From assembly GCA_964416635.1 (NCBI GenBank), contig CAYQEY010000002.1:1-54116 (forward strand): a stretch of 54,116 bases of DNA. Reading direction: 5' to 3'. Source of the stretch: an uncultured Lachnospiraceae bacterium. Lineage in GTDB: Bacteria > Bacillota > Clostridia > Oscillospirales > CAG-272. The position numbers and the translations under genes are program-made. The notes beneath the pieces were generated by a model that was given only the letters and a program-made list of their open reading frames with translations, was not told the origin of the DNA and searched no databases. Positions 48,736 to 50,898 of this stretch are shown piece by piece. The first letter of the stretch is position 1. Each line of letters opens with the position of its first letter.

Positions 48736-49842
48736 ATGAAATCTAAAATTAAAAGATCCTATTTTCGCGTTTTTTCAGTGATTATTACAATCATTATCAT
48801 CATTCTTTCTATACCTTTCTCCGCTGTAGCGGCAGATGGAGATCTAGCTGGAGCATATTATTTTAATAATGTCAAGTATCAAAACAAATATATTCACATA
48901 AATAATAACAACACCATGAAAGCTGAGGGAGAAACAATTGAGCTACATATCTTTAACGTATATTACGCTCTGCGTTGGAACGTAATATACGTAGGAAATG
49001 ACTACTACAAAATAGAATCTCAGTTTAGCGATTTGGTTCTTACTGCCCCTACGGGATATGGTAACGATATAGTTACTCAAACTACGTATACTGGTGCATA
49101 TACGCAACAGTGGAAATTTATTAAACAATCCGATGGAACTTATAAAGTTTCGCCGCGGAGCAATCAAAATTGTTTTTTAGCAGCAGGAACCGAATCTGCA
49201 GTTGCCGATCAAGATCTCGTAATTAGAAGTGCACAAAGCGACGATTCAGATAAATGGGTCTTGTTCAACACATATCTCCATTATTGGAATTCTAATTCTG
49301 CATCGGCTTGGTCGTGGGCAAAATATCCATCTCTATACTGTGAATTAATTGAATCATACTCAGATTTTTATTTTAATTCCGGCGTTAATATTGCAAAAAA
49401 TCAATGGAAAGAAGCATTAAATATTACGTGGAATTCGGCATCAGAGAATTCTTCAAAAATACAATGTTATGGTGCATCAATATATTATTTTTCAACTTTT
49501 ATGGGGATTGATTTTAATGAAGGAGTTCTCGGGTTGACAGTGTCACCAATATATACTTCAACGCAGAAAACATTCACTTGGAGTGGAACCACTAAAACTC
49601 ATACATTGTTGGCAGGGGCAACTATTTATATTCCTTCAAATGTCATTAGAAACGGAATACCGGTAACGCCTACTCTTTTTGAGCAATTTCGCATAATTAC
49701 TCACGAGTTTGGACACGCATTAGGATATAACGGACATTCTTTAATTAATACTGATATTATGTTTACGAATAATAATCCAAGTGATACGAATTACCATCTA
49801 ACTCAAAATGATATTGCTCATATAAAACAATTTTACAATTAA
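48736..49842 (+). CDS. Secreted ricin-type beta-trefoil lectin / metzincin zinc metalloprotease fusion
   Basis: Signal peptide (...PFSAVA/AD). QxW-like triplets (LRW, QQW, DKW). The C-terminal HEFGHALGYNGH matches HExxHxxGxxH, with a downstream Met (TDIMF). AAGGAG SD. Confidence 0.75.
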   Translation: MKSKIKRSYFRVFSVIITIIIIILSIPFSAVAADGDLAGAYYFNNVKYQNKYIHINNNNTMKAEGETIELHIFNVYYALRWNVIYVGNDYYKIESQFSDLVLTAPTGYGNDIVTQTTYTGAYTQQWKFIKQSDGTYKVSPRSNQNCFLAAGTESAVADQDLVIRSAQSDDSDKWVLFNTYLHYWNSNSASAWSWAKYPSLYCELIESYSDFYFNSGVNIAKNQWKEALNITWNSASENSSKIQCYGASIYYFSTFMGIDFNEGVLGLTVSPIYTSTQKTFTWSGTTKTHTLLAGATIYIPSNVIRNGIPVTPTLFEQFRIITHEFGHALGYNGHSLINTDIMFTNNNPSDTNYHLTQNDIAHIKQFYN

Positions 49843-49914
49843 TTACTTTCAACATAACTTTAATATGTGCTATACCCTATACATAACTTTAATATATATT
49901 TTAGGAGGTTTGTT

Positions 49915-50898
49915 ATGAAAAAAACAGCAATAATCTTTATGCTTTTAACATCACTGCTTTTAACCGCTTGCAACGTCGAAAATAGCCTTGAAACCGTGCC
50001 TGAAGATTCTAAAACCGTGGATACTCCTACAGCCGATGCCACTATCGAGATCACCAATATATACTCGGAATACCTCTCGTTCGAAAGGTGCGTAAATGCC
50101 TCGACCGATATAATTAAGGGCAAATGTGTAAATATAATTGAAAACCCCGATAGCGTCGAATATGAATTCTCGGTAACAAAGCGTTTGACAGGTGAAGACG
50201 TTAAATCAAATATCTTTGTTTATGTAAAGAAAAATCAATCGGTAAGCGTAATTTCGGACGAAACGGTTGAATACGAAACATACGAACTGTCCGCACGATT
50301 GCCGTATCAGACAGGTTCCGAATATTATTTGCTCCTCTCAAGATATGTCAGTGTCTATTATGATCACGACAGATATATGGTCTTTAACAGCACACCGTTT
50401 ATTCCTGCGGACGATATTTCTCAAAGCAAAATGTACGGCGAATCTATTTTGGAACATTCAAATATGAAAACGCTGACTACGGAAAAAGAATTTCTCAGAT
50501 ATATTTCCTCGTGCATAGAAAATATTGATAAAACCGATAGACCATATTATTTCGGAAAACCTTACACGACCGAAACCGACCTTTCTGCCATTATAAATGA
50601 GGCAGACCACGTTGTAAAGGTAAAGATTCAAGAGCAAGCATATGATGGGTATACTGTAAAAAATAAAAATATTTATCGATGCACCGTTACAGATTCACTG
50701 AAAGGAGAAATACAGAAGGACGCGGTAATACAAGTTACCTTCTTCCCCGATACCGTGTCGGTGGGAGACGAATGTATATTGGCATTGGACGATTCTATCA
50801 CCAATATTACTCCCAAGCATTATAACTTTTCTTCAAAAAACAGCTTTTTCTCACTTTCGGACTACGACAGCATAATGGAGATCTTAAATAACGACTAA
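49915..50898 (+). CDS. Lipoprotein of unknown function with two internally similar halves
   Basis: The start is at M17 (MKKTAIIFMLLTSLLLTAC, lipobox) with a TAGGAGG SD. Two halves of about 110 aa share STDIIKGKC/ADHVVKVKI, YEFSVTKRLTGE/YRCTVTDSLKGE and GSEYYLLLS/GDECILALD. Confidence 0.7.
   Translation: MKKTAIIFMLLTSLLLTACNVENSLETVPEDSKTVDTPTADATIEITNIYSEYLSFERCVNASTDIIKGKCVNIIENPDSVEYEFSVTKRLTGEDVKSNIFVYVKKNQSVSVISDETVEYETYELSARLPYQTGSEYYLLLSRYVSVYYDHDRYMVFNSTPFIPADDISQSKMYGESILEHSNMKTLTTEKEFLRYISSCIENIDKTDRPYYFGKPYTTETDLSAIINEADHVVKVKIQEQAYDGYTVKNKNIYRCTVTDSLKGEIQKDAVIQVTFFPDTVSVGDECILALDDSITNITPKHYNFSSKNSFFSLSDYDSIMEILNND

Follow-up and report, generated by a model that had tools for sequence, protein, structure and literature searches.

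Secreted metzincins encoded beside a lipoprotein partner have been described in Listeria and Tannerella. In Listeria monocytogenes, the gene for Mtz, a Sec-secreted metzincin, has directly behind it the promoterless gene for Tim, a lipoprotein with an LTAC lipobox (LMRG_00713/LMRG_00714; Boichis et al. 2021, PMC8235301). Tim was assigned a TIMP-like fold by Phyre2, the pair is carried on mobile elements, and similar pairs are present in other Firmicutes including Clostridium (PMC8235301). Mtz cuts Tim about 50 residues in from the N terminus, and inhibition of Mtz by Tim was not shown (PMC8235301). In Tannerella forsythia, each of the secreted KLIKK peptidases has a co-transcribed lipoprotein inhibitor, a potempin (Ksiazek et al. 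2022, PMC9890683). The potempin PotA folds as a five-stranded oligonucleotide/oligosaccharide-binding (OB) barrel and uses loops to block the M10 matrixin karilysin: those with a functional role are located between strands 4 and 5, and the carboxylate of an Asp is placed on the zinc. PotA also protects the surface of the cell (PMC9890683). Here we describe a gene pair of this known kind, a secreted metzincin next to a TIMP-like or OB-fold lipoprotein, in a 54,116-nucleotide (nt) stretch of DNA (the window) from an uncultured Lachnospiraceae bacterium (contig CAYQEY010000002.1, positions 1 to 54,116 of the forward strand). Gene A (48736-49842, + strand, as all features of the window given below unless noted) codes for a predicted secreted ricin-lectin/matrixin-like metalloprotease of 368 amino acids (aa), and gene B (49915-50898, with its ATG at 49915) for a lipoprotein of 327 aa with two predicted NTR/TIMP-like OB domains.

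A first-pass annotation of the sequence had placed both genes correctly, with 72 nt between them, and had suggested that a Gram-positive, lipid-anchored partner of a metzincin would be new. This was overstated, as the Listeria pair (PMC8235301) and the Tannerella potempins (PMC9890683) precede it. With Mtz-Tim, as published, the window pair shares the gene order, the LTAC lipobox, the N-terminal spacing of about 50 residues and the predicted TIMP-like fold, as well as the arrangement of metzincin and lipoprotein in one transcription unit on or beside mobile elements. It differs in that A has an N-terminal ricin lectin and a longer HExxHxxGxxxH motif, and in that it lacks cI/cro-like regulators and has instead a conserved leader with a small open reading frame (ORF) and hairpins. 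Moreover, B is a tandem duplication of the module, while the paper on Tim is silent on a duplication in that protein. No Listeria match was obtained by tblastn of B and of the A protease domain against phage records, by tblastn of B against plasmid records, or in two viral-contig scans. With PotA and karilysin, the common ground is an OB-fold lipoprotein co-transcribed with a secreted M10 matrixin-like protease; the partners are peptidase-specific in both systems, and the surface protection shown for PotA is what we propose for B. As in PotA, the candidate contact loop in the N domain of B lies between strands 4 and 5 and contains an Asp. Potempins, however, have only one barrel (98-132 aa), their genes stand immediately upstream of the peptidase gene, and they are anchored in a Gram-negative outer membrane, whereas B is a tandem protein of 327 aa, encoded downstream, in Gram-positive Clostridia. 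What appears to be new is the tandem module, the lectin fusion, the longer zinc motif, the size of the uncurated B family, the modularity of catalytic heads and partners, and the leader that they share.

The reading that we favour, with the scales about level, is that B would be the cognate membrane-tethered binder of the A catalytic domain, that is, its inhibitor or immunity factor. B is taken as a specific partner of A because it is linked to the protease in every locus where this can be seen and because the partner is exchanged together with the catalytic head. Regarding linkage, a B-type gene follows directly after the protease gene in 18 of 18 subfamily loci with downstream DNA, a set that includes lectin-free short proteases, tandem M10-B-M10-B' arrays and one truncated B remnant. 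Starting from B, a protease of the same subfamily was found directly upstream in L001, L005-L007, L008-L010, L011-L013, L015, L017, L021 and L024; in L001, the counterparts of A and B are 77% and 66% identical to those of the window. In L002-L004, a protease remnant cut by an insertion sequence (IS) element stands upstream of B. Searches that started from the protease, without recourse to B, led to P0016, P0017 and P0038, and all three have a B-family gene behind them. When metagenomes were scanned with the protease domain alone, the loci in which the subfamily model matched over most or all of the domain (L037-L040) all had B directly downstream and L062 had a truncated B remnant downstream, while more distant M10 proteins from other environments were without B. 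Even pairs whose identity has fallen to 28% for B and to 28-34% for the protease domain keep the linkage, whether or not the protease carries the lectin. Conservation of the gene neighbourhood, the strongest evidence of all, lends strong support to a functional pairing of A and B, as the first-pass annotation had suspected.

The tandem arrays (L006 1279-3949, L007 237-2907 and L002 3-1623) have a further peculiarity. Their first protease is truncated by IS elements of the DDE or mutator family, and their second protease ORF, of 155 aa, has no visible signal peptide.

These neighbourhoods also bear on an alternative in which adjacency would come from unrelated genes hitch-hiking on one mobile cassette. 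A and B do lie in one low-GC island, but their adjacency is kept at 28% identity, in many contexts, in tandem pairs and with lectin-bearing as well as lectin-free proteases, and no terminator separates them, so that we give this explanation next to no probability.

The second line of evidence comes from loci in which the lectin carries another enzyme. The A-type signal peptide and lectin are fused to a Cys-rich metalloprotease head of a different type in L027-L029 and L065-L068, the head motif being LLHETSHFLGLGDH in L027 and HEISHFYGLGHH in L065. Behind these heads (L027 2382-4452; L065 4001-7917) stand one to three lipoprotein genes, all outside the B family. The partner lipoproteins of L027 and L065 are 82% identical to each other, and the three consecutive lipoprotein genes of L065 include two of the L027-partner family. 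Among the partner products of both loci, those of 253, 247 and 316 aa are mutually related, and one of 249 aa matches none of them. In L030 (1899-7127 and 7228-11155), a ricin-lectin/LCAT-like lipase of 687 aa precedes a polytopic membrane protein of 253 aa, and the next pair consists of a lectin-M10 protease and then B; all of these adjoin genes for a TraG/type IV secretion system (T4SS) coupling protein and a Toprim primase of a conjugative element. With the Cys-rich metalloprotease head, the same lectin and leader thus have another lipoprotein family behind them (L027, L065), and the lectin-lipase of L030 has a membrane protein; the downstream gene therefore tracks the catalytic head and not the lectin. 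Such co-exchange of head and partner follows the logic of enzyme/cognate-inhibitor or effector/immunity pairs.

AlphaFold2 and Foldseek predict two NTR/TIMP-like OB domains in B, one N-terminal (50050-50514, residues 46-200) and one C-terminal (50527-50895, residues 205-327). The model of full-length B, made from a 13-sequence alignment, had a predicted local distance difference test score (pLDDT) of 79.7 and a predicted template modelling score (pTM) of 0.70. Both modelled domains consist of a helix followed by five strands, to which the C domain adds a final helix. In Foldseek searches of the PDB, the whole chain matched HIN-200 domains and the telomere end-binding protein of Oxytricha, which are tandem-OB proteins. 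NTR-type barrels were matched by one domain of the full-length model: agrin NtA (E 3e-5, probability 1.00, TM 0.64), several TIMP-1 entries (E 8e-4 to 3e-3, probability 1.00, TM 0.41-0.55), TIMP-2, the NTR module of PCOLCE, and C345C from both C3 and C5. The N domain modelled alone reached a pLDDT of 87.5 and a pTM of 0.83, and its 50 best Foldseek matches were almost only NTR modules, with C3 C345C at 1.8e-3, TIMP-2 at 3.7e-3, NtA and PCOLCE among them. At the level of the predicted fold, it thus holds that both halves of B are NTR/TIMP-type OB barrels, and it is in this fold that they resemble TIMPs and the other NTR modules (MEROPS I35; agrin NtA, C345C, PCOLCE NTR). By family conservation, two exposed motifs of B stand out as the most conserved: SSKNS in the C domain (50830-50844) and, in the N domain, SVYYDHDRY (50350-50376), the most conserved loop, which lies between predicted strands 4 and 5.

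The serralysin/AprA and AprI/Inh systems resemble A and B in that a metzincin has a dedicated partner gene in the same cluster, AprI being a known inhibitor. AprI (MEROPS I38) is a periplasmic eight-stranded barrel that acts through its N terminus. An AprI-type or eight-stranded barrel was rejected for B, as its predicted fold is OB/NTR, and neither an AprI/Inh-type protein nor a potempin was among the 50 best Foldseek matches listed for the B models. A search of all PDB sequences with the B-family profile found no related solved protein, potempins included.

The two halves can also be recognised in the sequence, although not by simple comparison. BLASTP detected no similarity between the N and C halves (E 10), and hhalign with a 13-sequence profile gave a P of 0.0013; with 142 family members, the halves aligned over 93 columns with a probability of 95.3% and an E-value of 2.1e-8. 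By this profile evidence B is internally duplicated, and the register of the alignment is that of the three motifs from which the first-pass annotation had concluded that the protein is built of two halves of the same pattern. Upstream of the first domain lies an L-T-A-C lipobox (49960-49971, residues 16-19; sequence inspection) with Cys19 predicted to be lipidated, followed by a linker (residues 20-45) predicted to be disordered; in the AlphaFold2 model, residues 1-44 have a pLDDT below 50. B had been described as a lipobox lipoprotein without a recognised motif, and no Pfam family (E up to 1) or NCBIfam family was found for it. Word-indexed homologue searches gave 13 and 20 relatives, with no named protein among them. 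An exhaustive profile search of a protein library clustered at 50% identity retrieved 1156 representatives of the B family with E up to 1e-3, of which 344 had E up to 1e-30; nearly all were about 300 aa long and matched across both halves. B therefore belongs to a large family without a Pfam or NCBIfam model whose predicted barrel is that of animal TIMPs. Two members of double length, P0063 (630 aa) and P0073 (619 aa), match the B profile in two stretches and would carry four barrels per chain.

Gene A begins, by inspection, with a Sec-type signal peptide. The ricin-type beta-trefoil lectin follows (48841-49275, residues ~36-180), for which RicinB_lectin_2 (Pfam PF14200) scores 39.7 bits against a cut-off of 25.6 (E 8e-10); it contains the three-fold xxW motifs LRW79, QQW124 and DKW172 and matches 'ThreeFoil' in the PDB at E 2.8e-8. 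Both the signal peptide and the lectin had been read correctly from the sequence. The lectin would direct the protease to glycans. The order of lectin and protease had been called unusual, but it recurs in at least 26 protein clusters.

The remainder of the protein (49321-49839, residues ~196-368) is a matrixin-like catalytic domain, to which Peptidase_M10 (Pfam PF00413) aligns over profile positions 28-158 of 159 with 35.8 bits (cut-off 24, E 9e-9). By sequence, the closest solved proteins are matrix metalloproteinases (MMPs) and karilysin, and the Met-turn (DIMF, M342) and C-terminal helix of A align to MMP-20, other MMPs and karilysin. What had been taken for a very short protease C-terminus is thus a full catalytic domain of about 170 aa. 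The Met-turn Met342 lies at 49759-49761, and in the subfamily alignment A3 the Met of DIMF is invariant (M147 of the alignment); the third His of the zinc motif is followed by Ser (GHS in A). The zinc-binding motif HEFGHALGYNGH (49702-49737, residues 323-334) reads HExxHxxGxxxH and not the canonical metzincin HExxHxxGxxH reported at first, its third His standing one residue further on. This longer spacing is present in 8 of 8 aligned subfamily sequences, it appears as a one-residue insertion in the HMMER alignment to MMP-20, and the motif common to the subfamily is HExGHALGxxGH. No cysteine-switch pro-peptide (PRCGxPD) was recognisable in A, in which the ricin lectin precedes the catalytic domain. 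The best explanation of this anatomy is that A would cut proteins through its matrixin-like zinc domain.

Taken together, we propose the following course of events. A would be exported by Sec, its ricin lectin would target glycans, and its zinc domain, which has no recognisable pro-domain, would cut proteins. B would be exported as well and, once lipidated at Cys19, stay on the outside of the cytoplasmic membrane, where it would display its two duplicated NTR/TIMP-type OB barrels on a flexible tether of some 27 residues. There, it would bind the catalytic domain of A and shield the producer's own surface as inhibitor or immunity factor, in parallel to the potempins of Tannerella and to the immunity proteins of secreted toxins. 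Candidate contacts are the SVYYDHDRY loop between strands 4 and 5 of the N domain, with Asp152, and the SSKNS motif of the C domain, rather than a Cys of the TIMP type. A may also cut the tether of B and so free B or a complex of both, as for Listeria Tim.

Several points weigh against B being such an inhibitor. The Foldseek E-values for B are modest (3e-5 to 4e-2), sequence identity is 10-20%, and no TIMP, NTR or other Pfam profile matches B at E up to 1, so that the resemblance of B to TIMP/NTR proteins is one of fold only. In TIMPs, the free N-terminal Cys1, which is tied to the barrel by disulfides, chelates the catalytic zinc. B lacks both this zinc-chelating N terminus and the disulfides of TIMPs: its sole N-terminal Cys is the lipobox Cys19, about 27 residues ahead of the first domain. 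The one Cys besides that of the lipobox to be conserved throughout the family is C256, whose aligned counterpart in the other half is the core residue F85; conserved cysteine pairs were not found across the B family. Since its only N-terminal Cys would be lipidated and conserved Cys pairs are absent, the N-terminal cysteine mechanism of TIMPs cannot apply to B. Of the resemblance to TIMP/NTR proteins that the first-pass annotation had sensed, the predicted fold of both halves has therefore stood, and neither a match in sequence profiles nor the Cys1/disulfide mechanism has. B is also bacterial, lipid-anchored and duplicated, in all of which it differs from TIMPs. Furthermore, the NTR modules of C3/C4/C5, agrin and PCOLCE bind and do not inhibit. 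About half of the sampled members of this large B family (1156 representatives with E up to 1e-3) are not beside a protease. Lastly, sensitisation of the Listeria cell wall needs both Tim and active Mtz, and Tim is a substrate of Mtz, which is a poor fit to a pure inhibitor (PMC8235301).

This behaviour of the Listeria pair is a ground for another explanation, in which B would be a pro-effector or substrate, as has been proposed for Tim: A would cut the tether near residue 45-55, and the freed tandem fragment, alone or with A, would act on the cell wall of the producer or a neighbour or on host targets. Mtz cleaves Tim at about 50 residues and the phenotypes need both proteins, with Mtz active (PMC8235301); B has the same LTAC lipobox as Tim, and its disordered segment (residues 20-45) ends exactly where the first domain starts. 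However, the frequent orphan B genes would lack an activating protease, and the exchange of heads with their partners and the lipoprotein arrays behind one protease look more immunity-like. On the whole, we consider the pro-effector unlikely. If B instead inhibits A, as we favour, it would stand for a bacterial family of TIMP-fold inhibitors with a different mechanism, which bears on how Gram-positive gut bacteria escape their own secreted proteases and on the origin of the NTR/TIMP fold. The analysis of A and B also yields a testable hypothesis for the still unexplained Mtz-Tim pair of Listeria.

The reverse linkage does not hold: about 9 of 20 distinct B loci had no protease nearby (L014, L016, L018, L019, L020, L022, L023, L025 and L026). 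No motif was found that separates protease-linked from orphan B proteins, both of which keep SVYYEHDRY and SSKNS. With around half of the sampled members away from a protease, a broader role of the B family is possible; orphan genes are also usual for immunity genes. In L016 (1310-3024), a protein of 388 aa joins an anti-sigma-like N terminus to a B-type tandem module as its C-terminal part; its gene stands directly after a gene for an extracytoplasmic function (ECF)-type sigma factor and has a second sigma factor gene downstream. This fusion may act as a sensor built on the binding module of B.

The L016 locus and its ECF-type sigma factor invite the view that B-type modules are extracytoplasmic sensors or receptors for a ligand (protease, glycan or protein fragment), which would signal or adhere, the pairing with A being a matter of co-regulation. 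A large and largely stand-alone family would agree with this, as would the role of eukaryotic NTR modules as generic binding modules. We hold it to be very improbable, given that 18/18 linkage and co-exchange argue for a specific relation to the catalytic domain and that B itself has no signalling domain. The same fusion, by suggesting a binding or sensing module, speaks against B being a membrane-anchored maturation or docking factor that folds or retains A, comparable to steric chaperones such as Lif, which serves lipases, or PrtM/PrsA, which serve the lactococcal PrtP. This possibility is raised by the absence from A of a recognisable pro-peptide or cysteine switch, by the position of the lipoprotein gene directly downstream of A in the same operon, and by the constant company of B at the protease (18/18). 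With orphan B genes being common and the NTR/TIMP-like OB fold not known among foldases, a chaperone seems quite improbable.

A cognate binder of the catalytic domain, the reading that we favour, would also fit into a larger picture. In polymorphic toxin/immunity cassettes, a constant targeting module carries variable enzymatic heads, each with its cognate small protein, and orphan or arrayed immunity genes and mobile elements are usual. The lectin loci are alike in their constant module, variable heads, cognate partners, orphan and arrayed immunity-like genes and mobile context, and they differ in having a plain Sec signal peptide, a lectin as constant module, and metalloproteases or a lipase as heads. 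A wider proposal, possible if rather doubtful, is that gut and rumen Clostridia have a Sec-dependent, lectin-targeted polymorphic effector family, in which a constant lectin and a shared attenuator leader would be combined with swappable matrixin-like, other metzincin-like or lipase heads, each with its membrane-anchored immunity protein. In this proposal, the members of the B family would be true metalloprotease inhibitors of the NTR/TIMP type, forming a large bacterial branch in which loops replace the N-terminal Cys. That heads and partners are swapped behind one lectin and leader points to a possible effector/immunity-like system of the gut microbiome that has not been described before and could serve interbacterial antagonism or the processing of host glycoproteins.

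A and B form a two-gene operon. The spacer between them, of exactly 72 nt, has no visible terminator-like site, both genes share a reading frame, and a strong intrinsic terminator (50906-50934; 9-bp stem with 7 GC pairs, T7) directly after B closes the operon. Within the spacer, a 15-nt direct repeat, ACATAACTTTAATAT, is present in two exact copies (49852-49866 and 49881-49895), 29 nt apart, which could be due to chance.

About 3 kb around the operon (~47950-51050) have a GC content of 33-40%, compared with about 49% in the flanks. This cassette is bounded by an oxidoreductase-like ORF (ending at 48085, minus strand) and by lepA (starting at 51054). Its counterpart in L001 (~4200-7200) is likewise a low-GC cassette, in another genomic context, and the housekeeping genes at the flanks differ between the two. 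Both cassettes have 34-40% GC in genomes of about 49-50% GC. No integrase or other mobility gene was found inside the window cassette, nor were direct repeats or att-like sites found flanking it. In relatives, IS elements lie beside L002-L007 and conjugation genes beside L030. The best explanation is that the A-B operon is a mobile, imported low-GC cassette. Relatives come from metagenome-assembled genomes of Clostridia (Oscillospiraceae, Ruminococcaceae, Lachnospiraceae) of gut and rumen.

Ahead of A, DNA-level conservation extends over about 400 nt and is shared by at least seven related operons, whatever catalytic head these encode. The comparison covered positions 48402-48735 of the window and the corresponding leaders in L001 (4420-4843), L033 (2400-2750), L035 (~1040-1291), L015 (1-274), L027 (~2100-2381) and L065 (~3660-4000). 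No Rfam match was found in the cassette, leader included. The leader opens with a promoter-like site, TTTACA-17-TATAAT (48402-48430), which agrees with the consensus at 11 of 12 positions and is conserved in L001 and L033. It is followed by a terminator-like hairpin (48475-48512; GCCGCTATCA...TGACAGCGGC and then TTTTTG), which is conserved in the window, L001, L027, L033 and L035. Next comes a 31-codon leader ORF (48544-48639; MTVHRKSNNLDFRHIHIFNRRSPLLFISLGI) with a GAGGAGG ribosome-binding site ahead of it, whose core IHIF(N/Q/K)R(R/K) is kept ahead of seven related operons and whose stop codon lies inside the next hairpin. This long hairpin (48631-48690; arms 48631-48648 and 48664-48681, then a T-rich tract) is a candidate attenuator or terminator. 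Altogether, the conserved leader looks like a leader-peptide attenuator, for which it is a candidate, and the stem of its long hairpin is mostly invariant across relatives, with one compensatory pair.

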